NCBI GenBank assembly: GCA_977020255.1
Contig: CDROCS010000840.1
Location: forward strand, 496,001-560,000
Reading direction: 5' to 3'
Source of the DNA: Obrimoposthia wandeli
Taxonomy: Eukaryota
Length of the DNA stretch: 64,000 nucleotides
Shown: positions 587-64,000 of the stretch, piece after piece
How positions within the stretch are numbered: position 1 is the first letter of the stretch
How the letters are laid out: each line of letters opens with the position of its first letter
The notes under the pieces: model-generated
What the model was told of the DNA's origin: nothing
The model's database searches: none
Seen by the model: the letters and a program-made list of their open reading frames with translations, nothing else
Position numbers and translations under genes: made by a program

Positions 587-683
587 TTATAAACATAAAT
601 TCGAATCAATAATATGAATTTATATATGGGATCACTTTCATCTATTCCTAAATTAAATATAAAAATATAATCGTCTTGCTGCA

Positions 684-1713
684 ATGGAGAAAATATGGTT
701 CGATCCAAGTCGACCCCGTTGGTTACACAGGGGTTTCAAAATTAGCAAAAGAGTCAAAGAAGACAAAAAAGGAAACTCAGGCGTGGTTGAAAAATCAATT
801 AGCTTACAGCTTAAACAAACCAATGAGACGTCGGTTCCCAACGAGATCATACAAAACAAGCGGCCCGAATGATTTATGGCAAGCAGATTTGATGGAAATG
901 ATTCCGTATGCGAGTATTAACGACGGACATCGATATATTTTAACTTGTATTGATGTCTTTAGCAGATTCGCGCGAGCTATTCCATTAAAGTCTAAGTCTG
1001 ATACCGATGTTTTAGCCGCAATGAAGCTTTTGATTTAAGAAATAAAACCAAGAAGTTTCCAAACGGATAGTGGAAAGGAGTTTTATAATAAACATGTTAG
1101 TGCACTATTGAAAAAACATAATATTAATCATTACTCAGTATTTTCCCAATATAAAGCTGCCCTAGTTAAACGTTTTAATCGAACATTGAGAGATCGATTG
1201 AAAAAGTATTTCACAAAGCAGGGAAATAAGTCCTGGGTCACTGTTTTACCTCAAATAATACATGCATACAATCATACTGAACACTCATCGTTAGACCGGA
1301 AAAGACCCGTTTATGTTACAGATGAGAATGCTATGGAAATTTGGCAACGCCGTAACCAAAGTCAAGTTGTAAAGAAACCCAATTATAAAGTTGGTGATTA
1401 TGTACGTATTTCTCAAATTAGTACTACTCCTTTTATAAAGAATTTCAAAGAGAATTGGAGCGATGAAGTATTTCGTATAACTAAAATTGATAATAAACGT
1501 GTGCCGGTAATGTATTTCATTGAGGATGAAACAAATAATGTAATCACGGGTAAATTTTATCATGAGGAATTACAAGTCTTGCCTGAGAAACCAAATGTAT
1601 ATAGAATCCAAGAAATTTTAGAGACATAAGGTAGAGGAAAGCATAAACAATATCATGTTAAGTGGCATGGATATACTGAACCTAGTTGGATATTAGCTTC
1701 TCAAATAGAATGA
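684..1713 (+). pseudogene. Retroviral-type (rve) integrase with C-terminal chromodomain
   Basis: MEKIWFDPSRP-(+1 frameshift in CCCC near 716)-VGYTGVSKL...WQADL...YILTCIDVFSRFA...FQTDSGKEF...KRFNRTL. Stops at 1036-1038 and 1627-1629, then GRGKHKQYHVKWHGYTEPSWI (chromodomain) to TGA 1711-1713. Confidence 0.93.
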
Positions 1714-2732: not shown

Positions 2733-3091
2733 TTGATTCAAGTATAATCGATGCGTATAGTAAACCGATGCAAGGAGGTGATTTGCCTTATTTTGCGGGA
2801 AAACAGTATGGATCAGGATGGCTGAAGGTTTTTGGTTGCTTTGCTTTCCCACTACTCAAGCGACTCGGGAAATTTATTGCTAATGTTGGATCAAAATACT
2901 TGTCTGGTGATGAGAAATTTGTTCCCACACAAAAGGATGCAGCCTTGGATCAGGGGAATGAAAGTTTACCAAGTCTAGCTGAATATTTGAAAAAGAAAAC
3001 TCAAAAGGGAAGTGGTTATAAACGTAAGAAAACATCTAAAGCATCAGGTATAAACAAACGTTTGAAACTAGGTGGAACAATCTTTAAGTAA
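2729..3091 (+). CDS. Small virion core/membrane-active precursor protein
   Basis: Intact 120 aa with MQGG/D, QYGSG/W and QKGSG/Y motifs (candidate adenain sites), an amphipathic WLKVFGCFAFPLLKRLG segment and a basic C-terminus. Confidence 0.65.
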   Translation: MIDSSIIDAYSKPMQGGDLPYFAGKQYGSGWLKVFGCFAFPLLKRLGKFIANVGSKYLSGDEKFVPTQKDAALDQGNESLPSLAEYLKKKTQKGSGYKRKKTSKASGINKRLKLGGTIFK

Positions 3092-4320
3092 TGAGTTGTG
3101 CTAAAACTGAATTGTGTATATTCGATAAACCTATATCTCAGGTTGTGGTTGATAGTGCTAGTTTTGAAGAAATATTTCCGACAAATACGGTTAACGGGAC
3201 ATCTTCTCCGGATTTAGAATTCAATATTAATGGATCCAATACTCAATATCTTGATTTGAATGATAGTTTATTTCTCGTTAAATTGAAAGTTACAAAGGAA
3301 GGAGGAGGTGATTTGGATGATGATTTGGATATCAAATCAGTTAATTAAATGTTGCATACTCTTTTCAAGGATGTGATTCTCAGTCTCAATAATGTGAAAG
3401 TTGAGGGAAATAATACTAGCTACACCCATAAAGCAATGATTGAAACATTGCTGAATTACGGTAATGATACGAAATTGATTAATCTTGATGCAATTGGGTT
3501 TGATGATGATGAAAAAAGAAGAACTGCTTCGATTGCGAAATCTAAAGTATTGTCACTTTGTGGGAGTCTCCATTTGGATTTCTTTAAGCAACCAAAGTAT
3601 ATTTTACCCGGTGTAAGTGCACATATTCGAATGAAGAGAAATCCAGTAGGTTTTAGTGTTGTTTGCGCCGATACCAATAAAGCTGCAATTGAGATTACGG
3701 AAGCAAAACTGTTGGTTCGAAGAGTAAAGGTGGAACCATCTGTACTCGTTGCACATCGAATAGGGTTGGAGAAGCAAAATGCATGTTATCCTATTAGAAA
3801 AACTAATCTTGTTTCTCACGCTATCCCTACGGAGGCTCTATCTTATTACAAGGATCAGATATTTGGTGATATGCAACTTCCAAACTTTGTTTTAATTGCT
3901 TTCCAAAACACTTCTACCTATGGAGGTGAGTCTAAAAATGAGGTTTTTCAATTTGGACACATGAATGTGAGTTCAATTAAACTTGCACGAAATATTGATT
4001 ATCAAGAATCTTATACGAATGACTTTGAAAATAATGATTATGTGTTTTCTTATGTGCAATCTTTAATTAGAAATCTTGGTCATTTGGATAAGGATGCAAA
4101 TATTGAAATTTCAATGACTGATTTCAAGGACAAGTATACACTGTTCACATTTGTTCTCTCTCCTGATTTCGATATTAATCAAGCTCAAATCCCTAAACAG
4201 GGAAATTTGAAAGTAGAAATCAAGTTTTCAAAAGCACTTGAACATCCTACTAATATTATAATCTATGGAGTATTCGATTCTGAGGTTCAAATTACCAAGG
4301 GAGGAACAGTACTAGTATAA
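3091..4320 (+). pseudogene. Polinton major capsid protein (PY, double jelly-roll) with one in-frame stop
   Basis: MSCAKTELCIFDKP...YLDLNDS...N*MLHTLFKDV.L.LN...LHLDFFKQPKYILPGV...PNFVLIAF...LFTFVLSPD...GNLKVEIKFSKAL..PTNIIIYGVFD. The two ORFs are in frame across TAA 3346-3348. Confidence 0.9.
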
Positions 4321-4349
4321 ACAAAATGAAAACAATAAAGAAGATATAA

Positions 4350-4727
4350 ATGAAGTAAGTCAGTTTGAATTTATTAATTAATATATATTCTAGTTCGGAA
4401 GAGATAACAAAAAGCGGAAGAAAACTACTCGGTTCGCGTTTCAATGGAGTCTACAGTCTTGATCACATCCCCTCTTTGACTCGTTTAGGTGGATATGTAA
4501 TCAATACACATTCATCTAATTTGCGTGGTGAACATTGGATTGCAATACATGTTAAAGAAAATGAAATCTTTGTTTTTGACCCCTTTGGGATATATTACCC
4601 TTCTAAATTAGTATCTACAGTACTTGACTCTCGAAAGAAAGTACATTTTAGTAAGAAACATTATCAAAATGTTTTAACACAGTCATGTGGACAACTCTGT
4701 ATGCTTTGGTTAAAGCATAAACAATAG
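4350..4727 (+). CDS. Adenain-like cysteine maturation protease, spliced: exons 4350-4354 and 4394-4727
   Basis: GEHWIA...FDPFG...YQ...QSCGQLC catalytic H/D/Q/C pattern. ATGAA/GTAAGT...TTCTAG/T removes a 39-nt intron and yields in-frame MNSEEITKSGRKLLGSRFNGVYSLD. Confidence 0.9.
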
Positions 4728-4764
4728 ATATAAACAATATCAAATAAAATTATTGCTATAAAAA

Positions 4765-5253
4765 ATGTCTGTTTATTTAATTGATTTTGAAGCTTTTATT
4801 GATAATAATACTGAGTTTGTAATAAAAGAACTATGTATAATGGATCTGGATGCAATCTTCTATCCTAAACATTACGTTTTTAAAATGCAACCTATATGGG
4901 ACATGATGAATAGAAAATCAAGAAAAATAAATAGATATCTCATTAAGCATTACCATCGACTAAAACTAGTTGATGGTAATAGTTATTTCAAGATACAAGA
5001 AATAACTGAGAAAATAAAACGTTGTTGTGATGTATCCAAATCAATTTTCTATGTTTTGGATGAAAATAATGGAGCTAAAATAAAGACAATCAATAAATAT
5101 TTTCCTGAATTTAGAGTGATAAATTACTCGAAAACATTAAAACAATTAAATCCATCAAATATCAATTGTCCATATATTAAACATGGAGAGCATTGTGCAT
5201 ACAAGAAATGCTTTGCAGCTAGTTTGGATTATTTAAATATTAATGAAAAATAA
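4765..5253 (+). CDS. Conserved Polinton accessory ORF with DFE.F...IKEL start (possible DEDD/DnaQ-like fold) and C-terminal C/H cluster
   Basis: Intact 162 aa: YLIDFEAF...FVIKELC...HYVFK...NRYLIKHYHRL...CPYIKHGEHCAYKKC. Function not established from sequence. Confidence 0.6.
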   Translation: MSVYLIDFEAFIDNNTEFVIKELCIMDLDAIFYPKHYVFKMQPIWDMMNRKSRKINRYLIKHYHRLKLVDGNSYFKIQEITEKIKRCCDVSKSIFYVLDENNGAKIKTINKYFPEFRVINYSKTLKQLNPSNINCPYIKHGEHCAYKKCFAASLDYLNINEK

Positions 5254-5358
5254 ACTACTCACATCCTTCAGTAAACTATTTTCTATTCTGATTAAAATGA
5301 ATCTGATTAGTTTAAATAATGAATGAAACTGATTGGCTTAATACTAGCTCGAAAATAG

Positions 5359-5365
5359 TATATAA
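5359..5365 (+). promoter_or_regulatory. TATA box of the pPolB gene
   Basis: TATATAA about 50 nt upstream of ATG 5413, preceded by CTGATT/CTGATTGG (CCAAT-like) motifs. Confidence 0.45.
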
Positions 5366-5412
5366 GCAAGCATCAATCAACAAATAACTCTCTATTATAA
5401 ACGAAATTGAAA

Positions 5413-8400
5413 ATGGTAAGATTCTTGTTATTTCTATATTTATTATATTTATAGAATTGCAATATGAATAAACGACTATGCTTCGAGGAGAGTCACAAGG
5501 AATGTGACGAAAAAATGAAGAGCTACTTAAGGCAGAAGTTCAACGGACAACAATTTTACGTATGTCCAGTATGTCTCTCCGCGGAGGAGATTGATTGGGT
5601 AGAGTTTGTGGCACGTCATCGTGTCCATCTTCGTCATTTCCAGCAACGTTGTAAGAAGGCCATCTTTCAGAATAGATCTGCTTCTCCTGCTACTATTTCT
5701 CAAGTTCCGGTTGCTGCACCAGTATCTACTCCAATTGCTGCTGCTGTTTCAGTTGCTGCACCAATTACTTCTCCATTTGCTGCTGCACCAATTGCTTCTC
5801 CATCATCTGCTGCACCAATTACTATGCTTCATGTTATGCCTCCTCCAGTTGGTATGATCCCCGTGCCGTTACCAGCATCTACCCGCAAGAGAAGTGTTAT
5901 GCCCACTTCAGGTAGCTATGTTGCGAAGTTTTCCAGGGTTGATGCTGTTAAGCGTAAGACTAGTCTTCGGGGCACGATTGAGACATTGTCATTAGATGTT
6001 TCTAATGACAATGTCATCGATTTACAAGTTCCTGTATCACCTTTGACTAGCTTAAGAGACACAGTCAGCAAGTTTGCGACTTGCAAGGTTCAATTCGGGG
6101 TCAATATTGAAGAAACACGCGCTTGGAATTTTTCCAATAGAGGGCTCCCCATAGATGAGGGGTTTATAGATGCGGGAGTAGATGGGATCAACAAAAAGAT
6201 TGAAAATGATTCCCAAAGTAGCAGTAATTGGGTAGTGAACCGCTTCCTGGAGATTTCGTTTGTTGTAACTAAAACAACAACAATGAACTATCTCCAGGGG
6301 AGTAGTTATAAACCTACTCCATCTGAGTTAGCACTCTCACATTGCGTTATCAATATGCAGAACTCTAACACTTTTTGCTTCCTTTACAGTATCTTATCTG
6401 TACTTTTCCGCGAAGTATTTCGCTCTAATCCTCATCGGGTTACTCAATATGATGCCCTTTTGAGTCAATTAGTTTTTGATGAGAATGAGATGCCGATACG
6501 TCTATGTAATATACCGCGATTTGAGAGAAAGAATCCATCTCTCTCAATCAACGTATTTACATTCAATAGGTTATCTAATGTGCAAACAGATAGGGATATC
6601 TTCAAAAATCCCTATGTGGATGTCATATACAGGACCACAAACCCGGACGCTAAGGCAATCAATCTTCTCCTTTTAGAAAATAATGATAATTTTCATTATG
6701 TCGCTATTCCTAAACTCAATAGGCTGCTTAATTATAGGAACAGAGGTGTATCTAATCGCATCCAGTGTACTTGGTGCCATAAGTGTCTTCATAACATCCG
6801 GAGACCAATAAGTTACGACAAACACGTCCCGCTCTGTAGGATGAATTTAGATCATACAACACTTTATTCAATGCCTACAGAGAAGCATATTGAGTTTAAG
6901 GACTTTTTGAAAACGATTTCACCGCCTTTTGCTGTTTACGCGGACTTTGAAGCTGTGCTACCGCCGCATGGAATCCATCATCAGATTCAGCTTCCAATCT
7001 CGGCCGGTATGCTCATGTCTCCCGTTGCAGCTACGATAGGGTACACACATGATTACTCGGTCTTTACTGGGGAATCTTGTGTGGTATCCTTTTTGCAGAA
7101 ATTAGAGGACTTGGCGAAAGAGGTTGTACTCCCATGGTACAAGAAGCATGCGATTGAGGTGATGCGACAACTCACCCTGGAACAGGTATCGAGTTTCAAT
7201 GCCGCAAGAATCTGTTACCTGTGTAAGAAGAAACTCACAAAGAAAGTTCGAGATCACGATCACATGACTGGCGAATATCTGGGAGCAGCACATGCAAAAT
7301 GCAACTTATCAAGGAGACTCAATCGATCTTTTCCCGTCATTTTTCATAATCTGATGGGTTATGACATGCATCACATATTGAAACACGCACTGTGCATGTT
7401 TCCTGACTAGAATGTCTTTCTTATACCTCAATCAACAGAGAAATTTCAGGCTATGATGGTGTATATTGGAGGAGTCTGTATACGTTTCATCGATTCCCTT
7501 CAATTTTTGAACAGCGGCCTTGAAAAACTTGTGGAAAACCTGGGTGTGACTCCTCTAACACATTCGGTCTTCCCGCAACATCTGGTGAGCGCCAAGGAAA
7601 TCTTCCCATACGATATGGCAGTATCAGAGACTGCTCTTCGTGCAATCACCAGCTTACCGCCAAAGTGGGATGAAAAGATCAAACCAGCACAATATGAAAT
7701 GGCGAAGATGGTCTGGACTCAGAGCGGCTGCTCATCGCTCTGGGACTATATTCTGGTCTATATGAAGATGGACGTCTACCTTCTAGCAGACGTGTTTACA
7801 GCATTCTGGACCAAGGCCATTGCTGACGATGGATTGGAGCCACTAAATTTATTCTCCATCCCTGGTTTGTATTTTACTAATTTTTTCTAATTTTCACCAA
7901 GTAAAATTTAACCAAGTAATTTTTATTAAGTAACTTTTCACAAAGTAATGATTTTTACAATGATTTTAATAAATGTTTTATTTTCAGGACTGACTTTCGC
8001 GAGTGCTTTCAAATCCCTGCTTCATCCGGCTTCTTCTTCTTCTGCTCCTCCTGTGCGAGTCGAGCTAATACAGGATCCAGAGATGTACCGTCTTTTCCGT
8101 TCCGGGATTCGCGGGGGTATAACCTTTGTTAATGAACACCGCGTGGACGCCATCAATGGTACAGAACTTTTGTACATTGATGTAAATAATTTGTACGGGT
8201 GAGCTATCTCCCAGTTTTTACCTTGTGGTAACTTTTCCTGGGTGACTGATCGGTTAGAGTTGGGGAATATTATTTCCAGCTTAAAATCAGCAGATTTATC
8301 CTGTAGTCGCTTCGCTCATTTATTGGAAATAGATTTATCCATTCCCTTTGAGCTTCATAATAAATTCGACGATCTTCCCTTGCTACAATTAAACAGCGTC

Positions 8401-9415
8401 CACCAGGGTGTAAGACTGAAAAATTGTTATTAACGCATTACCATAAGAAACATTATGTTGTGCATTCTAGATTGCCACAAATGTACGTTAGACTTGGTGC
8501 TAAGGTAGATTTTGTATACAGAGCAATACAGTTTGAACAAACTAATGTTATTTCAAAATATATTAAGGATAATTCTCTCAAAAGAGCTGCGGCTACAACA
8601 GATTTCGAGCGGGATTATTATAATCTGAAAGTGAATTCTTTATTTGGAAAACTCATTGAGAATCTGATGAAAAGAATTAACCTCCGGATTTGTAATACTC
8701 CACAGAAGGTAGTTACCTATAGCAGTAAAGTCCACTTTCGTAGGACAATCGAAATCGATACGGACCTTATTGCAGTTTTACTGGATAAGGAAAATATTGT
8801 TTTGGATCGTCCTAGTTACATGGGCCAGGCAGTATTAGATTTAAGCAAACTTCGTATGTATGAGCTACAATATGAGCAGTTGGAGAAATATCGAGTTCAA
8901 TTTAACTGCGACATTAGAATTATAGCGGGTGACACTGATAGCTTTTTCTTGAAGTGTAATAATGTAAATGTTCAAGAATCACTGTTACCTGCTATGATTG
9001 CTGATGGACTGTTGGATACCTCGAAATTTCCAAAAACCCATCCGCTTTATACGACGCTTAATACAGCGATAGGAAAATTTAAAGATGAGAGTAAGGGATT
9101 ATTTAGTTATAGGCAAGGGATTTTTCTACGACCAAAATCATATAGCCTAGAGACTACAGAGGGTGAATCTCAGATGAGAGCGAAAGGTATTAGTCTCCGA
9201 CAGACGAGTATTAGACACTCTAATTACTTAGCTGTCTATGAGAGTGGCGTTAGCGAGCGTGTACAACAACAACGTATAAGCTCGCTAAATCATCAACTTT
9301 TACTGTAAGGTTAACTAAAATTGCCTTAAGCAGTAGTGATGATAAGCGCAAGTGGATGGAGAAAAACCGTTCAGTCGCCTATGGTCACTTTTTATACCCG
9401 GATGAGGTTGTATAA
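5413..9415 (+). pseudogene. Protein-primed family B DNA polymerase (pPolB) with N-terminal Zn finger, OTU-like Cys/His region and endonuclease VII-like insert; two introns; disrupted
   Basis: YADFEA (ExoI), RDHDHMTG..GAAH..CN, FHNL.GYD, RFIDS.QF, YIDVNNLYG, K..VNSLFGK, AGDTDSFF, GKFKDE, RPKSY, RAKG motifs. Introns 5416-5454 and 7865-7987. Trp codons mutated to stops at 7408-7410 and 8200-8202; frameshifts near 8400 and 9300. Confidence 0.95.
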
Positions 9416-9929: not shown

Positions 9930-10464
9930 TAGAATATGAGTCATCGATGAGTCATAGGATGAGTCATCGATGAGTCATCTTATGACCTGAGATTGACCTT
10001 AAATGACTTGTCCTCATGACGTCATGACCTTAACTTGACCTTAAAGTACATTGTCCTCATGACGTCATGACCTTAACTTGACATTAACTTGACTTGACCT
10101 CATGAGGTCATGACCTACATCTTGTCCTCACCGTGACCTTAACTTGTCCTTATGCTGTCATGTCCTCATCGTGACCTTAAGCTATGCTCAAAGGGGGGGG
10201 TATGCTCAAAATGTCTTTGTCCTGAAAGACTCACATCCCCGTACTGTATGTGTGTCTTTCAGGACAAAGACATTTTATCCTGAGCATAGGGGGGGTCATG
10301 ACCTCATGAGGTCATGACCTAGATTTTTTTCATGACCTCATGAGGTCAGGACCTACATCTTGACCTCACCGTGACCTTAACTTGACCTCAAAATTTTTGT
10401 CCTCAACTTGACCTGAGCTTGTCCTCAGGGGGGCTTTGTGCCAGAAGTCACACATCTACCTACT
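9930..10464. repeat. Putative right terminal inverted repeat / subterminal region of element A
   Basis: Dense TGAGTCA, TGACGTCA and TGACCT micro-repeats, G-runs, palindromes and a ~60-bp direct repeat, ending at ...CTACCTACT. The left TIR is not in the window, so TIR length cannot be fixed. Confidence 0.7.
10201..10288. repeat. Subterminal hairpin of element A
   Basis: 10208-10236 pairs with 10248-10276 (28/29 bp, 11-nt loop), plus outer TATGCTCA/TGAGCATA; flanked by G-runs. Confidence 0.9.
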
Positions 10465-13400
10465 GATGCACTCCATGCATTGGTTTCCAGTTATGTTAAG
10501 AAATATATGCAATGTGTTAATATGGGAGACAAACTAAACCATCTACAGATATTTGCTAACTTACTTAATGATAATATTTAAATATAATTTTATTTGTTAA
10601 TTTTTAAATTTTTTGATCGGTATATAAGTTGATGATTTTATAAAAAATTTATGGTAAAATTAAACCTGATCATAAAATATAAAAATTCATTAAAAAATTT
10701 AGCGAATTCACGTGGTAAAATTAATAAAAGAAACATTATTTACAATCAAAATGGATTCATAATGGCCATACTTCCCGTTATAGCATCTTTAATTGGTGGT
10801 CTTATAAGTTCAAGAAGTTAAAACTATGCAACAATGCAATTTTATTATATTTCTTAATAAAACTAATAACATTATATTAAGCCTATTCATCACTAAATTT
10901 TTTTTTAAATAATAACAATAATAAAATATATAATAACATTATGTTAAAATCAGCATACAAAGTAATATTAATAAAGAAAGAGAAACTTATATTGAATGTC
11001 GACTTATTATGTAAAGTAGATGCTCCCGATGTACCAGGGACCATTATTGTTGATGTTGATGTAGTTAACTGAGTTACATCAGGAATCATTACCGCGGATG
11101 CTAGTCTAAAACAATATTAAATATAATTAATTTTATTTAAAAAGAAACGAAATTGTAAATTAAATTTAATTGAAAATTCCAATTTATAATAAATATTATG
11201 ACAATTTAAATATTAATAATCATATAATATCTCAAATACTACAATTAAAATAAATTGTACCTATTTAAATTATGTTAGTTGCATCAATAACAAAAAATTA
11301 TAATAATATCAAATAATTACATTCTTTAGTTATATATATATATGCATATAAACAGATTAAAATATATTTAACTTTTATAAAAAATGGGAATAAACAATAC
11401 AAAGTTGTCTAATTTATTTATAAATTTCAATTATTCATGCTGTAATGGTATACAGGGTTAGAAAAATTGACAAAAAGAGTCAAACAATCGAAAACAAATA
11501 CACAAAAATGGTTAAGAAATGAATTATCATATAGTCTGAATAAACCTTTAAGGCGTAAATTCCCTACTATATCATATAAAACTAATGGTATTGATTTGTT
11601 ATAGCAGATGGATTTAATGGAAATGGTATTACTTCAGTAAATGAAGGATTTAAGTATATTTTAATACGTATTGATGTATTTAGTCGTTTTGCAAGGGCAG
11701 TTGGAGTTAAATCAAAATCAGGTATTGATTTATTACATTCAATAGAATCTTTATTAGTTGATGATGTACCAGTAAATATCCAAACTGATGAAGGTAAAGT
11801 ATTTTTTAATTCACATGTTAAGAAATTATTCAAAATTGAAAATATTAATCATTATTCAGTATATTCTCAATATAAAGCTGCAGTAGTTAAAATATGTAAT
11901 AGAACGTTAAGAAAACGGCTAAAGAAATAGTTTACTAAGCAAAGTAATAAGAAATTAATGAATGTATTACCAAAAATTATTTGTGCTTATAATAGTTCTA
12001 AACATAGAGGTTTAGATGATTTAAAACCTGTAGATGTAAATAATAAAAATGCATTTGAAATTTGGTTGAAACAAAATCCATAAGAAAAGAAAGTTAAATC
12101 TAAAATTTATGATTATGTTCGAATATCCAAAATAAGTACAAGTCCATTTATCAAAAAATTTAATCAAAATTGGAGTGATGAAGTTTTTCAAATTCATAAT
12201 ATTAATTATAAACAAAATCCAATAATATATATTTTAAAAGATATTGATAACGTCATCATCAAAGGAAAATTTTATAAACAAGAGTTACAATTAATTGATA
12301 AATCTAAACTATATCGAATACAAGAAATTTTAGAAACTAAATGTCGTGGTAAGAATAAACAATATTACGTAAAGAGGCATGGATACTCTGAACCTTCTTG
12401 GATATTTGCTTTTCAAATTGAATAATGTCAAAATATATTAATTTATCTAGTAACAGTTGTCCGACAACTCAACCTAGCACTACAGCCAATCAATTTATTG
12501 TAGATTGGGAAAACTCTCTAAATTTAGATGGTGAATGTTGTGGAAATTCGAAACTTTAGAAGAATCAAAAATTATAGGTTTTAATGAAATACAAAAAATG
12601 TCTAGTCATATGATGAAATTGTTGGCATAAATAAAAATATTCATGCTAAAATGAGAATTACAATTTATTCTTTAGCTGAATATGAATACGAAGTAAAATT
12701 TGATCAAAATTATTTGATACAAGATAGTTCTTCATTATGTAATATTATAGCCAGTAAATGCAAAGAGGTTTTAAAATCTGTATTATAGATTCAAATGGAT
12801 TATTTGATATTGTAATAAAGAAAAATGTAAAATCAGTTTTATTTGACGAAAAACTAGCTTCTTTATTAGGTTTAAATAATGTTTTCTTTGAGAAACGAAT
12901 TAAAGGTTTTCAAGAACCAAAACTTTCTAGTTCATATAATCAAATGTATATTTATACTAGTTTAACAGATTCTGTCTTAGTAGGATCTGATTATGTTCCA
13001 CTGTTAAAGTCTATTGGGTTAAAATTATTAAAATAACGATATGGAGATGTAGTACATGTTAAAATTATAATTACGTAAAGTATAAACAAGATAAATATAT
13101 TTAAAATATAAAAATGAATACATTAATTATAAAATTTTATAGCAAAAGTTAACAGGGCGGCGAACTTCCTTATTTCATTGTTAAACAATATGGCTCTGGT
13201 TGGTTACAAACTATTTCTAGATTTGCTATTCCATTCATTAAAAATGTTGGTTTAGCAGCTGCTAATGTATTTGGCGAAACGGCATGAACTGCGTTAACAA
13301 ATCCAAAAAACTTAATTTCATCTCTCAAAGAAAATACAGTCAAAGAAGTCAAAACTTTGACTCCAAAATTAAAAAATAATGTTTTTGAGAGTTTAAATAA

Positions 13401-14580
13401 AGTCACAAATTGTGTTGAACAAAATGGAAAGAGTCTTAAACGTAAAAGAAATAATTTAAATAGTATAAACAAACGTCTTAAAGGTACTTTTTTCCAAAAT
13501 TTCTAGTGTAAAATCTGAATTGTGTATTTTTGATAGACCATTACCTCAAGTAGTGATTGAAAATTCAAGTTTTGAAGAAATATTTCCAATCAATTCAATT
13601 ACTGAAAATTTAAATGACATAGAATTTAATATTCATGCATCTGAAGAAGATTATCTGGATTTGAATGATACTTTGATAAATATTAAATTAAAAATTGTAA
13701 ATGAAGTTGGTACTGATTTAATGAAAGATAGCGATGTAACTCCATAGAATTACATGTTTCAAACTCTGTTTAGAGATGTTATTCTAACATTTAATAATGT
13801 AAAGATTGAAGGAGGTAATGAATCGTATACTCATACGGCTATATTCGATACTCTTTTGAATTTTAGTAGTGATACCAAGTATACTAACCTTGAATGCCCT
13901 GGGTATGATGATGATGCAGAAATTCGTAAACAATGGATTAGTGAATCTAAAATATTTTCATTGTAAAATTCAATTTGATTAGATTTCTTTGATCAACCAA
14001 AATATTTAATTCCATGGATTTATATTCATTTGAGATTTATGAGAAATCAGCATAATTTTTCGCTCTATTCAGAAACTTCAAAACCAATTCTTAAAATTCT
14101 AGATGTCAGATTGTATGTTAGACGAGTTAAAGTTGATGCTTCAATAATGATTGGACATCAGTTAGGTTTGCAAAGTCAGAATGCAGTTTACCCAGTTAGA
14201 AAAACTCAGCTAGTAACATATTGAATTCCTTAGGGTTCTTTGGAACTTAATAAAGATTAAATATTTGAAGATTATAGTTTACCAAAGTTCATATTGATTG
14301 CTTTCAAAGCTACACTTCAGGGTGGTAAGGAATATAAAGTTACATCTTCTATGTTAAATACATTTAATACATTTAAGGTTTCAACAATATAATTAATTAT
14401 AAATACTGATTATCGAGAGACTTATAATCTAAATAATTTTAAAAAATTCATTAGCATATATGCAGTAAATTATTCGAAATATGAATCTTTTAGATAAAAA
14501 CTTGAATAATGGTATCAGATTATCTGATTTAAAATCAGGAAGTTCAATTTTTACTTTTCTATTAGTACCAGATTTTTTTA
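10465..14580 (+). mobile_element. Decayed Polinton family B fragment, copy 1 (pX-like, integrase, minor capsid, core, major capsid remnants)
   Basis: NQNGFIMAILPVIASLIGG (~10750), IDVFSRFA and chromodomain KRHGYSEPSW (~11670-12420), QMYIYTSLTDS..VG, QYGSGWLQTISRF, KSELCIFDRPLPQ...LDLND...LFRDV, FTFLLVPDF; many stops and frameshifts. Confidence 0.88.
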
Positions 14581-24913: not shown

Positions 24914-26339
24914 CCGAGACATACATACACGTTTCAACTGCACAAGAGCAGTTTACTGATGGCAGATAATGCAGTGGTCAAGGTAGCGAAATTGGAAGAT
25001 TAAGCGAGTAGGATACTTGAATTCCATCAAGAGTGAGTTCGAGCAGGTGCCTACGATTCTTATCCTGTCATTTAGGTTCGCTTCTGAAATCCCAAATTGT
25101 CCTAGCTTTTACCTACTGTAGCATACCACCGCCACTAAATCATTATATATGACTAATAATTTTATATTAAAATTATAATTGTTTTCTTAAACTTAGCGCC
25201 TCTTCTACACTCATCGCAAAAACTATTCCAATCCCATTTTACACCTATTAAAACTGAATATCTCATAGTGCACTCATAGGGCTCAAATACCCGAGAGGAC
25301 ATCTAAGGGCCAATGAGGACTCTTTGAGCGGAGCGATATATTTAAAGGGTCGCAAAAATTCTTATCTGAATATGTACAAGTGTTAGTTCAACCTTAAAGT
25401 TATAAAGTAAAGATAATCGTACGCAAAACTTTGTTTCATGAGAGATGAAACGCATTCATTTTTATCAGTTATATTTTTATGCTAATTAAAAGTTGAAATA
25501 ATTTTCTTTTCTTGATTTACTTTGGATCGTTTTCGAAAAACAACACAAATTTTTACAGAGGTAACTTTCAAAATTTAAAAATAAAATCTTTTTATTTTCC
25601 AAAGGCGTTTAAAAACTTTGCTGTTCTATCCATGAAGGAATTTCAGGTAATAAAATGTATTTACTGGTCCAAGAAATAAACCATGCTAACTATTTTATTT
25701 TCAGTAAAGTTTTCCTTTATGTAAAATATTATTCATATTTCCAAATCCAATGAAAATTGCTATGTCGGATTTCACATGCGCTTAATTCCATTTCCCACTA
25801 CAGTCATCGAAGTGTGTGCTTCCGTTTGATGGACTGTTGAGGAACCTGGCATATTGACTCTGATTAATGCACATGCGTTATCTTTAGGAGAGAAAAGGAG
25901 AAGAAATGATGCACTCCATGCATTGGTTTCCAGTTATGTTAAGAAATATATGCAATGTGTTAATATGGGAGACAAACTAAACCATCTACAGATATTTGCT
26001 AACTTACTTAATGATAATATTTAAATATAATTTTATTTGTTAATTTTTAAATTTTTTGATCGGTATATAAGTTGATGATTTTATAAAAAATTTATGGTAA
26101 AATTAAACCTGATCATAAAATATAAAAATTCATTAAAAAATTTAGCGAATTCACGTGGTAAAATTAATAAAAGAAACATTATTTTCAATCAAAATGGATT
26201 CATAATGGCCATACTTCCCGTTACAGCATCTTTAATTGGTGGTCTTATAAGTTCAAGAAGTTAAAACTATGCAACAATGCAATTTTATTATATTTCTTAA
26301 TAAAACTAATAACATTATATTAAGCCTATTCATCACTAA

Positions 26340-26680
26340 AAAAATTTAAAAATAATAACAATAATAACAATAATAAAATATATAATTATATAATAACATT
26401 GTGTTAGAATCAGCATACAAAGTAACATTAATAAAGAAAGAGAAACTTACATTAAATGTTGACTTATTATGTAAAGTAGATGCTCCAGATGTACCTGGGA
26501 CCATTATTGTTGATGTTGATGTAGTTAACTGAGTTACATCAGGAATCATTACCGCGGCTGCTAGTCTAAAACAATATTAAATATAATTAATTTTTTTAAT
26601 TACTTTTTATGTTTCTTACTCTGCATATGAGCATCCATTGAATATTTATTCATTGATCCTGTTTGGCATATTTTACATTT
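26340..26680 (-). CDS. Small spliced C2H2 (matrin/U1-like) zinc-finger gene inside family B, antisense between pX and integrase
   Basis: KCKICQTGSMNKYSMDAHMQSKKHK (C-x2-C-x12-H-x5-H) joins in frame, via a 38-nt GT-AG intron (26566-26603), to LAAAVMIPDVTQLTTSTSTIMVPG...STFN/GTAAGT. Start exon unclear. Confidence 0.55.
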
Positions 26681-29600
26681 TAATATAAATATAAATAATA
26701 ATTAAAAAAAACTCACGTATTCATTTGTAATCTTGATTTATTAAAATTTATTTTAAAAAAAACGAAATAGTAAATTAAATTTAATTGAAAATTCCAATTT
26801 AAAATAAATATTATGTCATTTTAATTATTAATAATAATATAATATCTCAAATACTACAATTAAAATAAATTGTACCTATTTAAATTATGTTAGTTGCATC
26901 AATAACAAAAAATTATAATAATATCAAATAATTACATTCTTTAGTTATATATATATGCATAAAATCAAATTAAAATATATTTAACTTTTATAAAAAATGG
27001 GAATAAACAATACAAAATTGTCTAATTTATTTATAAATTTCAATTCTTCATGCTGTAATGGTATACAGGGTTAGAAAAATTGACAAAAAAAGTCAAACAA
27101 TCAAAAACAAACACACAAAAATGGTTAAGAAATGAATTATCATATAGTCTGAATAAACCTTTAAGGCGTAAATTCCCTACTATATCATATAAAACTAATG
27201 GTATTAATTTGTTATAGCTGATGGATTTAATGGAAATGGTATTACTTCAGTAAATGAAGGATTTAATAATATTTTAACTTGTATTGATGTATTTAGTCGT
27301 TTTGCAAGGGCAGTTGGAGTTAAATCAAAATCAGGTATTGATTTATTACATTCAATAGAATCTTTATTCGTTGATGATGTACCAGTAAATATCCAAACTG
27401 ATGAAGGTAAAGAATATTTTAATTCACATGTAAAGAAATTATTCAAAACTGAAAATATTAATCATTATTCAGTATATTCTCAATATAAAGCTGCAATAGT
27501 TAAAATATTTAATAGAACGTTAAGAAAACGGCTAAAGAAATAGTTTACTAAGCAAAGTAATAAGAAATGGGTGTATGTAATACCAAAAATTATTTATGCT
27601 TATAATAATTCTAAACATAGAGGTTTAGATGATTTAGATGTAAATAATAAAAATGCATTTGAAATTTGGTTGAAACAAAATCCATAAGAAAAGAAAGTTA
27701 AATCTAAAATTTATGATTATGTTTGAATATCCAAAATAAGTACAAGTCCATTTATCAAAAAATTTAATCAAAATTGGAGTGATGAAGTTTTTCAAATTCA
27801 TAATATTAATTATAAACAAAATCCAATAATATATATTTTAAAAGATATTGATAACGTCATCATCAAAGGAAAATTTTATAAACAAGAGTTACAATTAATT
27901 GATAAATCTAAACTATATCGAATACAAGAAATTTTAGAAACTAAATGTCGTGGTAAGAATAAACAATATTACGTAAAGAGGCATGGATACTCTGAACCTT
28001 CTTGGATATTTGCTTTTCAAATTGAATAATGTCAAAATATATTAATTTATCTAGTAACAGTTGTCCGACAACTCAACCTAGCACTACAGCCAATCAATTT
28101 ATTGTAGATTGGGAAAACTCTCTAAATTTAGATGGTGAATGTTGTGGAAATTCGAAACTTTAGAAGAATCAAAAATTATAGGTTTTAATGAAATACAAAA
28201 AATGTCTAGTCATATGATGAAATTGTTGGCATAAATAAAAATATTCATGCTAAAATGAGAATTACAATTTATTCTTTAGCTGAATATGAATACGAAGTAA
28301 AATTTGATCAAAATTATTTGATACAAGATAGTTCTTCATTATGTAATATTATAGCCAGTAAATGCAAAGAGGTTTTAAAATCTGTATTATAGATTCAAAT
28401 GGATTATTTGATATTGTAATAAAGAAAAATGTAAAATCAGTTTTATTTGACGAAAAACTAGCTTCTTTATTAGGTTTAAATAATGTTTTCTTTGAGAAAC
28501 GAATTAAAGGTTTTCAAGAACCAAAACTTTCTAGTTCATATAATCAAATGTATATTTATACTAGTTTAACAGATTCTGTCTTAGTAGGATCTGATTATGT
28601 TCCACTGTTAAAGTCTATTGGGTTAAAATTATTAAAATAACGATATGGAGATGTAGTACATGTTAAAATTATAATTACGTAAAGTATAAACAAGATAAAT
28701 ATATTTAAAATATAAAAATGAATACATTAATTATAAAATTTTATAGCAAAAGTTAACAGGGCGGCGAACTTCCTTATTTCATTGTTAAACAATATGGCTC
28801 TGGTTGGTTACAAACTATTTCTAGATTTGCTATTCCATTCATTAAAAATGTTGGTTTAGCAGCTGCTAATGTATTTGGCGAAACGGCATGAACTGCGTTA
28901 ACAAATCCAAAAAACTTAATTTCATCTCTCAAAGAACATACAGTCAAAGAAGTCAAAACTTTGATTCCAAAATTAAAAAATAATGTTGTTGAGAGTTTAA
29001 ATAAAGTCACAAATTGTGTTGAACAAAATGGAAAGGGTCTTAAACGTAAAAGAAATAATTTAAATAGTATAAACAAACGTCTTAAAGGTACTTTTTTCCA
29101 AAATTTCTAGTGTAAAATCTGAATTGTGTATTTTTGATAGACCATTACCTCAAGTAGTGATTGAAAATTCAAGTTTTGAAGAAATATTTCCAATCAATTC
29201 AATTACTGAAAATTTAAATGACATAGAATTTAATATTCATGCATCTGAAGAAGATTATCTGGATTTGAATGATACTTTGATAAATATTAAATTAAAAATT
29301 GTAAATGAAGTTGGTACTGATTTAATGAAAGATAGCGATGTAACTCCATAGAATTACATGTTTCAAACTCTGTTTAGAGATGTTATTCTAACATTTAATA
29401 ATGTAAAGATTGAAGGAGGTAATGAATCGTATACTCATACGGCTATATTCGATACTCTTTTGAATTTTAGTAGTGATACCAAGTATACTAACCTTGAATG
29501 CCCTGGGTATGATGATGATGCAGAAATTCGTAAACAATGGATTAGTGAATCTAAAATATTTTCATTGTAAAATTCAATTTGATTAGATTTCTTTGATCAA

Positions 29601-58600: not shown

Positions 58601-59074
58601 ACCACTAACGTATCCAATTTAGCAACAGGAGCCGTACTCAATCAGATTGTCACCGAAAAAATATCCCCACTAGCAATTTTCTCAAAAAAACTAAAGACAC
58701 ACCAAATCAAATCTTCAACATATAACCGCGAATTACTAGCCATTTATCAAGCCACCAAACAATTCGAAAATCAACTAGTAGACAAAACATTCACCACTTA
58801 CACCGACTACAAACCTCTAATACACGCATTACATATGAAAAATCCGACACCAAGACAACAACGACAACTAAACTATATCTCCCAATTCAACACAACAATT
58901 AAATATATTCCAGGTTCCATGAACATTATAGCAGATACGTTATCTAGACCATCCGAATTATACGAAATAAACACAATCGATAACCTCTTACAACCACACG
59001 AAATCATCGGGAAACAAGAACTACATAAATTCACACGTAGTTCATACAACTTCACAATGTTCAACAATATATGA
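55651..59074 (+). mobile_element. Ty3/Gypsy retrotransposon (CsRN1/Kabuki-like), decayed, truncated after RNase H
   Basis: Putative LTR from TGTTGCC 55651, gag from ~56207, protease FLIDSGSSLSLI (~57280), RT KVRPL...WASAL...GEW.CCGDYRALN..T.PDAYPL, RNase H LAIFSKKL...STYNRELLAIY...YTDYKPL; no integrase. Confidence 0.9.
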
Positions 59075-59079
59075 GAAGT

Positions 59080-59255
59080 GTAAAGTTCGGTTCTAAAACA
59101 ATAGCACACAAAGAACTACCCCCCGAACAAGGAACGAGGAACAAAGCACATCTGGAATTCGCTTAGTCATTCAGATGTGCTTTGTTCCTCGTTCCTTGTT
59201 CGGGGGTGAGGGGGGTAGTTCTTTGTGTGCTATTGTTTTTGAACCGACACTTTAC
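59080..59255. repeat. Long subterminal hairpin of element C
   Basis: 59080-59154 pairs with 59172-59255 (about 75 bp, 17-nt loop, one ~8-nt bulge on the right arm and two small mismatches or indels). Confidence 0.92.
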
Positions 59256-59493
59256 GTTTTCAATCCTGATTGGTTTTATGTGTCATTTACAATTATGTAG
59301 GTTAATTTTCTGTAGACATTAAATATATAGTTCAAAAAAAATTTAAAAATTTAAAATTAGAAATTAAAAAATTTTAAAATTTTAAAATTAAAATTTTAAA
59401 AATTACAAATCAAAAATTAAACTTTTAAAAATTAAATTTTGAAATTAAACACAGTCCCAAGATTTTTATTTGCAACTATTTAATTTACTTAGT

Positions 59494-59550
59494 ACTGCGA
59501 CCCCATTCCAGGAGTTACACTGTCCCGCATAACCGGACAGCTATTGCAGT
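59494..59550 (-). other. Structured 57-nt motif, copy 1 (three-way junction)
   Basis: 50/57 identical to 63832-63888; three stems readable by eye. Confidence 0.7.
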
Positions 59551-59592
59551 TTTAATCTTGAAAACGTTATTGCTTATATAAGAAGTCTATGT

Positions 59593-59829
59593 TTATACAT
59601 AATTATATTTATTATCACAATCCATGCTTTCTTCTTCAACTTTAATGATTGTTGCAACTTTAAGTTTAAAGTCTCCATTAAACAGGTGATACATATAAAG
59701 TTCTTCAATCCTTGAGACAAAATGTTCTGATGCAACAAATAAGTTAAAGTATTTTTCAGTATACTGTACCATCAAGGTAGGGCTCAGGTTATCACGGAGA
59801 GCTTGCAATTTTTCTTTAGAAGTAGTCAT
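59593..59829 (-). CDS. Small 78-aa ORF downstream of element C pPolB
   Basis: Intact ATG-TAA ORF with a TATA-like CTATAAATATA about 45 nt upstream; no family recognised. Confidence 0.4.
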   Translation of the reverse strand: MTTSKEKLQALRDNLSPTLMVQYTEKYFNLFVASEHFVSRIEELYMYHLFNGDFKLKVATIIKVEEESMDCDNKYNYV

Positions 59830-60089: not shown

Positions 60090-63000
60090 CTATCTTAGAC
60101 TATAGTGTCCATATGCGACGGATTTGTTTTTCTCAATCCAAACCCTTTATCGTCATAACACCTTAACGCAATTTTATCATTATACATTGTAACTAATTGA
60201 TGATTACGAGATAAAATACGTGTCTTACCGGAAGTTATAATTTTATCATCGACATAACACTTGATGTAATGCCTATGTCTGATTTCGGTTTGTTTAAGGG
60301 AGATACCCTTAGCCCTCATACTCGTTTTCAATGAGTAGCATTTAGGTTTCAGAAATACCCATTCATCATAAATCACTGTCCCCTTGCTTTCATCTTTAAA
60401 CTTTCCAATCACATTTCGATGAGAATCGTTAAATAACTCATGTGTGAGCGGGTAATTACTAGTATCTAACATCTGATCTTTAATCATTTGTTTTAAGAGG
60501 ACATATTTATCTACATGCTTACACTCTAAGTAAAACGGGTCTGTATCCATTGCAACTATGTTGATATCACAATGATATTTCTTACGATACGTAGTTGGTA
60601 CATACGTAGTTTAGATAAGTCCAACACAGCTTAACCAATATATGAGGGTCGATCCAGACTAATTTCTTTCTTTTGCATAAATAAAAGATTGAGATTGTCG
60701 GTTATTTGATTATGCTTCTTAAACCAAGGGCTTGAAACAAGTTTAGTAAACTGCCGATCATTCTTGGTAAGACGGATATCTTTACGTTTTTTAAGATTTT
60801 CCACCGTCTTACCATTTATTGAGTTATTTTGAGTTTATAAAACTCTTTATCAAATGTAGTAGTACCCTCTGCCCGTTTCCGGCTATTGATATCATTATAT
60901 GTTTTAAATATAAGAGCTTGATGAAACTTTATTGCTCTATGCACTTGTTTAATTTCTGCACCCAGAAACAAGTAAAATTGTAGTAGTTGTGAGTGTATGA
61001 TGTAATTATTTTTATCCTCATGGGTCATCAACAGCTTTGAAGCTTTTGAGCCGGCAGGGATTTCTCTATTAGGCGCAATCAGTAAGTCATCAAGTTTATC
61101 ATGAATACTGATGGGTATGTGTAAATAAATTTCCAACAAGTATCCATGTTCTTTAAGACTTAAGTCCTGCATATTAATCTGTATGTGGTAACGGTTGACT
61201 CAAGGCCCAGCCATATAGGTTGTTTATGTCAATGTATAGGAGGAATGTTTCATCTGTTGTTTTAACGTAATGTTTATTGATGAAAGTCATCCCTCCCCAT
61301 ATCCCTGCCTCAAACATGTTATACATTTCGGGATCATGCAATAAATCCACGTCATACTCTAACGTTTTTAATGCGCTAGCCCAAATGAGACCGGGGATAC
61401 TAAAGAAATTGAGCGCCTCTAGATTATCATCATCTCTTACTTTCTGTCTAAAGGCCTCAAAAACATCACATAACAGATACACGTCAAGTTTCATATACTC
61501 AAGCATGTAGTCTTTAATAGTATTACACCCTAATACGGTCCACATCCTTAGGGCTTCATTATATTGTTGATCAGTGACTCGCGAAGGAAACTCAGATTTA
61601 GCGGGTAACTGCCTCTCCATAAGCCTATCAACACCACTAATACATTAATATGGAAATACCACCTTACTTGTTGCAATATTAGGGTTTAGGTATTGTATAG
61701 TATAAGGACAACTTGGCAAGTATGAAACTAAGGATTCAAGACTTGACGTTGTAAAAAGGTATGAATCAATGAATTTCATAGTCCCCCTCTTCATCTCTAT
61801 ACAGAGAGACATGAACCTTTCACTTGATTTAGGGATAATTAAAAAGTATTTACCTTTCAAGTCGGCATATTTTAGAATATGATGTATGTCATAACCCATA
61901 AGGTTATGAAACACCACAGGTAAAACTGGTCTCTTTGCAAACTTGCGACTTAAATTGCATTTGTTGCATGCCAAACCCATGTATTTACCCGTGATATGAT
62001 CATGATCTCTAACCATACGATCGTTTAATTTTTTACAAAGACAACAAATGGTGGCGCAATAGATTTAGACCAGTCAGAAAACTGACACTTGGTCTCTTTA
62101 GGCATCGTAAACAAGGTTGTTAAATCTGTATTAATATTACAATGTGCCCTGTGTTTGTCATATGAAATCGTGGTTCAAAAACCGAAAAGATATTTCTCAC
62201 ACCACATTATATTTTTGAGTATTTAAAAGTCTATTCAGGTTTGTATTCCCTGTATAGTGATAATTACCGCTCTGTTCCAACAGCAAAAAGTTTACTACTT
62301 TTTCGCACTGCTTAAGACTCGTTTTATAAATAACGTTAACATCTGGGTTTTTAAACACTAGATGACTACTATGAGTACTACCTTTGTAGGTTTATAGAAA
62401 AATACTGTTATCGCAATATTATTGAGTTTTTCAAACGCCTTGATGCAGTCTATCCTCATAGACCAGGCTCGCATATTAGTTCATTTAAATAATCATTATA
62501 GTTTTCAACTCTATGTCTGTTTCGATTGTGATCTTTATAACGTAGGATGCTGAGAACAGCGTATTTAAAACACTGATCATCAGTATTATTTACGTTCACT
62601 ATAAATAGTGTTTTAGCAAGCGCAACCGGGGTTTTTATAAATGATGATCCTGCTACGCTTAAAGTGCAGTAAATTTAAAGGATACCAACAGAATTTTAAA
62701 TACTGACGATCCCGAACTCATATCCTTATAAATTTCAATTTTATTGTTGAGCTCAACTTTTTTTTGAAGTGATAAAATCTTGTTCAAAAATATTTGCTTT
62801 ACAGCTTACATACCATGTTTTATGTTTACCCTCATTATTGACAAATTCTGTTTCAACACAAAACTGTACTTTACAGGGACCAAACATATCTATACTGCTA
62901 GTAAGTTCAGTTAGCATAGTATCGTTAATGTATAGTTTAAGCATGTTTAACCCACTAACATCAAAAACAAGGTTTGATTGAATTGCACCTCCTATTTGAT

Positions 63001-63681
63001 TGTTAAAAGTTAATGTATTATCTGAATTAATTGTAACAATATCATCAAAGTCATCATCCGTAATAGTTAGGAGCGAGTCGAAAAAATCATTTTCTGTTAT
63101 AAACTCGTCCTGATCTATAAGTTCATCAATATTATTATTTAAGATTTCATTAGTTATCTGATTAGGGGTTAAAGGCTCAATAATTTCTACAACTTCAGGA
63201 TTAGTATCAATTTCTTCAACACTATCCAGTTCCCACGAGTCTACCACATCAAACTCTTCATTAAGATTATTATTAGGTAAAATATTAGTTTTTGCTATTT
63301 TATTGTTGTTTATTGTACGCTCATTACTTTACATTTGTACGTTGACTTTTTAGATTTAAAAAACGTCAGATGATCCTTATGATCATTATAAAATGTTTGA
63401 TAATCAATACAATATAACACATCACAATGTGGACAAATAAAACCGCTTTTAAATTTATAATATTTAAGCATTACACTATGACATTCTATTCCATGATTAA
63501 CGTTTGTGCAATACTTGTACAATGTACATAAGTTACTTCCTCCACGAAGTTTAGGGTATACATGGATAATAGCCCTTTCATGTAAAACATTACTGATAGT
63601 AGCTTCCCTTTCAAAGGGCATGCCATTACGGTTAAAATAAATTTGGTCAGTCCCGAAGACTTCATATAATTTATACTTTCT
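60090..63681 (-). pseudogene. Ubiquitin-like leader - Zn finger - acidic linker - OTU-like region - pPolB, multiply frameshifted
   Basis: ...VYPKLRGG/SNLC, FICPHC..IDYQTF...H..HL, AGSSFIKTP...DDQCFKYAV...NYHY, RDHDHITG..CNKCN, FHNLMGYD, KFIDSY, FSIPGLIWASALK, YIDINNLYGWA, MDTDPF, GKFKDE, LKPKCY, RAKG. Confidence 0.92.
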
Positions 63682-63831
63682 TTAGTTAATTAAAATATTT
63701 TTTAAACGGGATATTTTCAAAACCCGAGTATATCTCATTTACATTAAAATTTTCTAACGAATTAACAGGTGACCCTACACGTGTCCCTGGTTTAAAAAGT
63801 AAGGGGTAACCTCTTGATTTATTTAACTTAC

Positions 63832-63888
63832 TCTGCGACTCCATTCCAGGAGTTAGACTGCCCCGCGTTACCGGACAGCTATCGCAGT
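63832..63888 (-). other. Structured 57-nt motif, copy 2
   Basis: Direct repeat of 59494-59550, located about 150 nt upstream of the ubiquitin-like leader. Confidence 0.7.
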
Positions 63889-63954
63889 CGGGATAATTAT
63901 ATTTGATTTAAAAAAAAGTTGATTTAAATGACTAGAATAGGGAGAAAAAACATG

Positions 63955-64000
63955 AGAAGAAGAAGAAGAAGAAGAAGAAGAAGAAGAAGAAGAAGAAGAA
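63955..64000. repeat. (GAA)n microsatellite running off the window end
   Basis: About 15 perfect GAA units. Confidence 0.98.

Follow-up and report, generated by a model that had tools for sequence, protein, structure and literature searches.

A ubiquitin-like domain with a di-glycine tail inside a Polinton polymerase of Obrimoposthia wandeli: affinity to the SDE2 cleavable domain and a candidate host-cut junction

Why does the polymerase of a mobile element carry, directly ahead of its zinc-binding segment, a stretch of protein that ends in LRGG, and what, if anything, would cut behind it? The question is raised by 64,000 nt of DNA from Obrimoposthia wandeli (assembly GCA_977020255.1, contig CDROCS010000840.1, positions 496,001-560,000 of the forward strand), which we call the window. 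Here, a minus-strand frame at 63310-63681, with 123 open codons, reads ...VYPKLRGG, then Ser (SNL), and then enters a Cys/His-rich segment (Table 1). OTU enzymes cleave after ubiquitin-like tails, and a sequence-only reading of the window had proposed that the LRGG segment is a ubiquitin-like leader, which is clipped off by an OTU-like domain of the polymerase itself, by the protease of the element or by host deubiquitinases. We verified that the frame is open and that LRGG runs straight into the zinc-binding segment; all four catalytic codons had also been placed correctly, both in this vOTU domain (Table 1) and in the sister polymerase of family A (Cys 6376-6378, His 6694-6696). The labels families A, C, D and E are this analysis's own naming.

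Table 1. Parts of the window copy and of the sister polymerase used for comparison (positions within the window).
Feature	Position	Strand	Remark
Ubiquitin-like domain, C-terminal ~46 residues ending LRGG	63538..63674	-	Front deleted in window copy
In-frame N-terminal leader remnant, reference residues ~70-176	63675..63986	-	Two frameshifts; upstream cut by (GAA)n run
~55-nt motif, internal copy in frame inside leader	63833..63888	-	Also in both terminal inverted repeats
Cys/His-rich Zn-binding segment	63334..63537	-	Corresponds to the Met-started N-terminal domain of sister polymerases
Acidic low-complexity linker	63002..63333	-	Frameshift near 63317-63330
Terminal-protein (TP) domain	62657..63001	-	Second di-glycine motif, QIGG, before it; frameshifted in window copy
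vOTU-type protease domain	62209..62656	-	Cys 62570-62572, His 62257-62259; frameshifted in window copy
Protein-primed B polymerase: exonuclease, Zn insert, palm, in fragments	60093..62208	-	Pfam DNA_pol_B_2, Endonuclease_7
Small ~78-aa ORF, separating polymerase from terminal repeat	59593..59826	-	Reference copy has the same ORF
Terminal inverted repeat	59074..59578	.	55-nt motif at 59492-59550; AG...CT end at 59074
Sister Polinton family A polymerase (comparison only)	5464..9308	+	Met at Zn segment; without ubiquitin-like domain

The window copy diverges from the reference copy by 5.4% and has 14 frameshifting indels in its polymerase frame; the break that had been ascribed to a missing base near 63330 exists, at 63317-63330, but is just one of these 14. 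The first ~25 residues of the domain had been described as degraded. Their loss is due not to decay but to a single 179-nt deletion at 63674/63675, which took ~30 leader residues together with the 30 residues that open the domain, and a (GAA)n run of ~1.1 kb (window 63955-64000; L031:1927-3039) breaks the leader. The by-eye alignment of the surviving 48-aa fragment to ubiquitin proved to rest on LRGG alone, as its score was reached by 3 of 2000 shuffles with the tail and by 583 of 2000 without it. Beyond the (GAA)n run, L031:4104-4637 contains part of a capsid gene from this family. Further Polinton copies occupy positions 1-9400, 10400-14200 and 25900-29300 of the window; these belong to family A and to another family, of which two nearly identical copies stand ~15.6 kb apart. 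The O. wandeli genome harbours at least four abundant Polinton families.

The family of the window copy is large and young. A junction pattern matched the genome 1,253 times and the control once, which corresponds to ~1,250 copies; all 150 scored matches are at least 91% identical, and the protein of the complete domain is identical in 132 of 150 scored copies. The full-length copies examined (6/6) measure 15,063-15,277 bp and carry AG...CT ends and terminal repeats about 550-660 bp long, and a 6-bp target duplication was found in 5 of 6 end-to-end copies. The gene content comprises an integrase, an ATPase, protein X, a capsid-type ORF, adenain, a BIR-RING protein and a TBP-like ORF, with Pfam matches to rve, Pox_A32, Adeno_PX, Peptidase_C5 and DNA_pol_B_2, some of which fall under the curated cut-off. 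The capsid-type ORF, of 421 aa, stands at the expected place and has a weak Capsid_N match (E 0.02); the BIR and RING ORF is listed at L205:4812-5714 and the TATA-binding-protein-like ORF at L205:4444-4773. The BIR-RING protein is of the inhibitor-of-apoptosis type and a possible E3 ligase. By its terminal repeats, duplications and gene set, the element is a Polinton/Maverick.

In natural copies, the LRGG-ending domain and the polymerase belong to one chain. The longest open frames hold 1,539-1,559 codons (~1,550 aa), and exact matches to KLRGG, the vOTU Cys motif DDQCF and the palm motif YIDINNLY lie in a single frame in 17 of 19 loci, these loci having been selected for long frames. A separate ubiquitin-like gene was rejected on the evidence of this single frame. 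The parts follow one another as a leader of at least 206 aa, the ubiquitin-like domain (reference residues 207-282), the Zn segment, an acidic linker, TP, vOTU and PolB; the domain is hence internal and not the N-terminal leader that had been claimed. Upstream of the long frame (L032 ~2030-2290), TATA and initiator-like signals are accompanied by two ~43-nt GT-AG intron candidates, and in 13 of the 14 copies where it can be measured, the exon between them varies in length by multiples of three bases, suggestive of a short additional coding exon. Part of the leader itself may have been built from terminal-repeat sequence, as suggested by a ~55-nt motif that lies at the inner edge of each terminal repeat and recurs as a third copy, ~90% identical, in frame inside the leader. 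This motif has 3,617 matches in the genome and 0 in the control, and folding of its sense strand gives a three-way junction (z -2.2 to -2.7). A known ribozyme was rejected, given that Rfam returned no match; the loci examined contained no homologue outside the family.

Complete versions of the domain in natural copies have 73-76 aa and end in LRGG. A single-sequence model, with a mean pLDDT of 54.8, has the sheet-sheet-helix-sheet order of the beta-grasp topology. Of the top 50 Foldseek chains, nearly all were ubiquitin, SUMO, PB1/UBX or other beta-grasp chains, none of them at E 0.001, and the 50 rows of a Foldseek-independent VIA search were likewise nearly all ubiquitin-like or PB1/UBX folds; the best of these had a Z of 6.1, which the tool places in a middling, common range, with an rmsd of 2.8 over 71 residues. 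Atlas gave beta-grasp leads only, with scores of 0.86-0.90. Such consistent matches from a low-confidence model indicate that the domain, as predicted, is a real ubiquitin-like beta-grasp fold, in agreement with the sequence-only reading. Pfam and PDB searches with the domain gave no ubiquitin match (PDB: one chance row each), the Pfam SDE2 models did not match the domain, a word-indexed search (residues 200-345, proteins of 853-2716 aa) produced no domain match, and an IMG/VR scan found no relative. HMMER over 1.84 billion representatives returned 15 rows, among which those matching the domain were repeat-summing artefacts. Among sequencing runs, none of the listed holders was RNA, and a search of run contigs yielded one 250-nt piece in a marine metagenome.

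Selection was assessed in 98 copies by comparing alleles present in at least eight copies with singletons. Within the domain, singleton variants behave as neutral (36 synonymous, 103 non-synonymous), whereas shared alleles comprise 9 synonymous and 3 non-synonymous changes (p=0.001; p=0.019 with a threshold of 5 copies and p=0.003 with 12). The domain is under purifying selection and presumably translated. Shared alleles behave similarly elsewhere, with synonymous to non-synonymous ratios of 11:2 in the Zn segment, 8:4 in TP and 10:6 in vOTU. Leader residues 126-206 are also under purifying selection (22:12, p=5e-6); the pattern of the domain is not repeated in leader residues 1-105 (13:51) or in the acidic linker (1:10), and shared indels keep the frame in 7 of 8 cases at residues 70-105 and in 10 of 10 in the linker. 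The tail was followed in decayed copies picked by the Zn-segment pattern: among the 65 of these 68 that cover it, 43 keep LRGG, a count made without L290-L300, which had been chosen by that motif. L267 was removed as a duplicate of L240. No change in the LRGG codons is widely shared in the sample. We estimate that 43/65 is about what neutral decay leaves, and the family is too young for selection to be read from four codons alone. Selection, fold and position together reject the occurrence of LRGG by chance.

To which ubiquitin-like family does the domain belong? Ubiquitin proper was rejected: the domain has 17 identities to host ubiquitin, carries N, Y, M and E in place of I44, R42, K48 and K63, and falls outside the ubiquitin group in the tree (support 99/98). 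The SDE2 domain, which we took to have a similar tail, was then tested. A host SDE2 query gave 865 homologues, of which 120 were listed; removal of 19 without a usable domain and 13 duplicates left 88 SDE2 domains, and the comparison, confined to the SDE2 and ubiquitin/NEDD8 families, set these against 19 ubiquitin/NEDD8-type domains. HHalign gave the element domain 95.3% (E 2e-8) against the SDE2 set and 10% (E 0.003) against the ubiquitin/NEDD8-type set, which is shallow (Neff 2.5), and the median pairwise z without the tail was 4.3 and 2.4, respectively. The best pair, with scallop SDE2, has 26 identities in 78 positions, and its alignment ends at the scallop SDE2 GG. The domain shares a Pro six residues from the end with 75/88 SDE2 domains versus 0/13 ubiquitin-type tails, and the motif [YF]xxxNG with 73/88 versus 2/19. 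It beats ubiquitin against 69 of the 88 SDE2 domains, and its score with the SDE2 profile exceeds that of all 1000 shuffles (1000/1000), with and without the tail. In the tree it stands among the SDE2 rows, which in 200 bootstrap trees never formed a side without it. The affinity has its bounds: ubiquitin and the element domain score nearly equally with the SDE2 profile (23.0 and 23.3 bits), true SDE2 domains reach a median z of 5.1-8.3 among themselves versus 4.2 for the element domain, and the AU test, which compares only two families and involves a long branch, does not reject a grouping with ubiquitin (p=0.39). On these alignments, the closest tested family appears to be the SDE2 cleavable domain and not ubiquitin. 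Of the proposed ubiquitin fusion, a true ubiquitin-like domain with an in-frame di-glycine tail stands, whereas ubiquitin itself does not, an SDE2-type domain being the better fit. The cleavable domain is all that the element and SDE2 have in common, and the element does not encode an SDE2 protein proper.

We consider it probable that the domain derives from SDE2, likely by capture from an animal SDE2 gene. The host's own gene (L301, G000:C4258:56868-57380) appears to encode a shortened ubiquitin-like domain of ~47 aa, for which an upstream exon is possible, and groups with flatworm SDE2 proteins, which are also its best named matches and resemble it in this shortening; its domain matches that of the element poorly (z 1.7 without the tail). 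Being short and poorly matching, the host's present SDE2 was rejected as the direct donor, so that the capture would be old or would have taken place in another animal. Host ubiquitin was also rejected as direct donor. A PF22781 search of the genome had no match even to host SDE2, and its null result is therefore uninformative.

The domain seems to have been a late addition. It is absent from all Polinton polymerase relatives examined, that is, from the 120 polymerase homologues listed out of 328 (best E 1.9) and from 70 metagenomic loci (0/70), and it was not found in three sister families. The homology of the Zn segment to the sister N-terminus, proposed earlier, holds: the polymerase starts with Met at this segment in 20/20 family-A copies, in 15/18 family-D copies and in four metagenomic relatives (L051, L053, L054 and L060). 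Element A had rightly been said to have no such leader, with a stop three codons ahead of the Met in all 20 family-A copies examined. In the 11 rows of family E, the open stretch upstream is 39 codons at the most and the ubiquitin-like domain is absent, and two sister polymerases begin Met-Ser. L174 was left out of this comparison of starts. These starts suggest placement of the ubiquitin-like domain at the old polymerase start. Since the Met of relatives stands at the Zn segment, cutting behind GG would make the polymerase begin where its sisters do. It would also set the defined Ser start suggested earlier; the GG/Ser point does coincide with the Met start of sister polymerases, and the cut itself we infer.

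The vOTU domain, in turn, had been the ground for making self-processing the lead model. Its Cys599 and His704 are invariant in 108/108 aligned sequences, as two of four invariant columns; 107 of these 108 sequences are homologues without the ubiquitin-like domain, and since the pair is equally conserved there, it does not point to self-removal. The model of TP-vOTU (pLDDT 92) has the Cys at the start of a helix and the His in a strand, as described for the pPolB vOTU in the accessible text of PMC11161782, which places Cys at the first helix, His in a strand and the whole domain after TP and ahead of the exonuclease. In a viral library, the model matches adintovirus polymerases (E 3e-17); its best PDB matches, which fill the Foldseek list ahead of any solved OTU structure, are Y-family polymerases, via the TP part, and the little-finger domain of Y-family polymerases is related to TP in the same text (PMC11161782). 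A profile of alignment A2 found no OTU match among PDB sequences. A predicted complex of vOTU and the ubiquitin-like domain, run without an alignment, scored 0.01 and was counted neither way. A task for vOTU, the release of the terminal protein, is already proposed in the accessible part of PMC11161782. Judged by the alignment, the Cys/His pair can be explained without a ubiquitin-like substrate.

We regard cleavage after the di-glycine as likely, and infer that a host enzyme is to be favoured over self-processing as the cutter. In this model, a host USP5-type deubiquitinase would cut the chain after LRGG and free the polymerase at its ancestral start, with a Ser end. A single mRNA would thereby yield a basic/acidic leader ending in a free ubiquitin-like tail and a Ser-starting Zn-TP-vOTU-PolB chain, the latter equal to the product of Met removal in the sisters that begin Met-Ser, and vOTU would keep its printed job of terminal protein release. 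Under N-degron rules, a Lys end is destabilising and a Ser end is not. With Ser instead of Lys, the cut would restore the start of the polymerase rather than mark it for decay, as Lys does in SDE2. For the model as a whole, from leader and SDE2-like domain through the host cut after GG to the polymerase freed at its ancestral start, we see the case for and against as evenly balanced.

Mechanisms of this type are known, and by analogy SDE2 and the ubiquitin insertions of pestiviruses would be the best guides. The host genome has both SDE2 and a USP5/USP13-type domain. In the accessible sections of PMC13572447, human SDE2 is cut by USP5, which requires L70, R73 and GG and is helped by E71 and L74; the cutting enzymes differ between yeast and human (Ubp5/Ubp15 in S. 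pombe, USP5 in human), the free SDE2 domain binds USP5 by its GG end, and the human cut is unaffected by the downstream residues tested. Such insensitivity to downstream residues would suit a transplantable cassette. At the positions required in SDE2, the element tail has V, K, L and GG, with Y in the place of E71; the replacement of R73 and E71 by K and Y counts against the model, as does the difference in cutting enzyme between yeast and human.

That the vOTU of the polymerase itself cuts after LRGG is, in our judgement, unlikely. Its Cys/His pair is intact, OTU enzymes cut after ubiquitin-like tails (PMC11161782, in the part accessible), and the conserved TP/vOTU junction of relatives has Leu and Gly at LRGG spacing (L in 52/108, G in 94/108); against this, the pair is as invariant in homologues without the domain, for which TP release is already proposed, and a folded SDE2-like body under selection would be more easily explained by recognition by a host enzyme. 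The selected body could also be a fixed module for interaction or stability, binding the proteasome, p97 or an E3, that is uncut or rarely cut. Most intraprotein ubiquitin-like domains are not removed (PMC13572447, accessible sections), those on nematode Maverick cargo appear to tune abundance (10.1101/2022.07.12.499685, accessible sections), and the N and Y at the positions of ubiquitin I44 and R42 also fit such a module. Nevertheless, an uncut domain would not be expected to end in an exact di-glycine tail at the site of the ancestral Met, and the closest tested family is cleaved, so that we consider a fixed module improbable.

Two further possibilities look beyond the polymerase. The protease of adenovirus has the consensus (M/L/I)xGG, which LRGG fits, and the element encodes a Peptidase_C5 and has a second GG motif, QIGG, directly before TP; its adenain-type protease might cut after LRGG, for example in particle maturation. 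This seems quite improbable, as in the GG motifs of structural-type proteins of the element (KQKGG, PQQGG) the fourth residue ahead of the cut is Gln, not Leu, and a folded domain of 73 residues under selection would be superfluous for a linear motif. Finally, the main product may be not the polymerase but the leader, which on release would have a free GG tail and act as an element-encoded ubiquitin-like modifier or a host deubiquitinase decoy, perhaps with the BIR-RING protein, a role compatible with a host cut. The selection on leader residues 126-206, the BIR and RING protein and the binding of USP5 by the GG end of the free SDE2 domain (PMC13572447, in part) would agree with this. We think it very unlikely, since no sign of E1 activation was seen, the I44/R42 surface is lost, BIR-RING genes can do without a modifier of their own, and the accessible sections of PMC13572447 do not describe the SDE2 domain as conjugated.

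Returning to the host-cut model, a broader version is possible, although we hold it with considerable doubt: the captured domain of SDE2, a host regulator of replication stress and splicing, probably taken from another animal lineage, would be a portable host-cut cassette that gives an active replicase and a leader tail, the tail engaging host deubiquitinases together with RING, vOTU and adenain. If the SDE2 origin is true, this would be the capture of a cleavable domain by a mobile element, none of which was found in our searches, and the domain would be a transplantable switch. One short natural fragment can separate vOTU, adenain and a host enzyme as the cutter, and can reveal whether vOTU recognizes ubiquitin folds.

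The same genome contains other elements with ubiquitin. In BEL/Pao-type LTR retrotransposons, a ubiquitin domain (PF00240, E 4e-24 to 7e-21) lies in frame directly ahead of Gag (DUF1759) in rows L147-L150, L209, L212-L215 and L217-L220 (e.g. G000:C2209:241595-241945). This ubiquitin is near-canonical, with at least three junction types that end in LRGG or LKGG, one of them followed by Met, and the ubiquitin-Gag junction is spanned in 38 of 150 scored matches at E <=1e-30. No paper on such a fusion was found among titles and abstract openings in the literature. Tandem arrays of diverged ubiquitin-like units, each with its own ~89-aa frame, occur on several contigs (L216, G000:C2050:143565-144848, and similar), and a first look with PF00240 gave 5,275 candidates in the genome. 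The ubiquitin-Gag fusions hint at a wider pattern, which, if true, would make them and the Polinton domain instances of a repeated strategy of mobile elements in this host, the host-cut ubiquitin cassette.

How does the element compare with known systems? In BVDV, ubiquitin insertions act as host-cut processing signals. As in the element, a host ubiquitin-fold coding sequence is placed directly before a protein start in the polyprotein of cytopathic BVDV (PMC13517609, accessible sections); BVDV, however, is an RNA virus with near-identical host ubiquitin in sporadic strains, whereas the element is DNA and carries a strongly diverged domain throughout a family of ~1,250 copies. The nematode Maverick cargo proteins WASP and KRMA, by contrast, show diverged ubiquitin folds carried by Mavericks, as here (10.1101/2022.07.12.499685); in the sections accessible, these folds sit N-terminally on cargo proteases and kinases and are read as abundance control, with neither a polymerase nor GG cleavage involved.

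Of the same element type is the pPolB of Polintons/Mavericks (adintoviruses), whose elements have the same integrase, packaging ATPase, protein X, capsid-type ORF, adenain, terminal repeats and 6-bp duplications, and which shares TP, a vOTU with its Cys/His and the palm. To the known order TP-vOTU-EXO-PALM (PMC11161782; PMC8502044), the element adds a leader of at least 206 aa and the LRGG-ending ubiquitin-like domain, of which the accessible text of these two papers makes no mention. A literature search, mostly outside subscription journals and confined to main-text passages of the Polinton papers, found no description of a Polinton polymerase that carries a ubiquitin-like or SDE2-like domain. 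The job of vOTU is a predicted one, and this family carries a natural candidate ubiquitin-like substrate in the chain of vOTU itself. With SDE2, finally, the element shares the tail pattern P-[RK]-L-x-G-G, the [YF]xxxNG motif and a domain that has diverged from ubiquitin and is fused ahead of a working protein. The SDE2 domain is N-terminal and that of the element internal; in SDE2, GG is followed by a destabilising Lys, in KGGFGS, and the SDE2 domain, whereas in the element, which lacks KGGFGS, Ser and the Zn segment come next.
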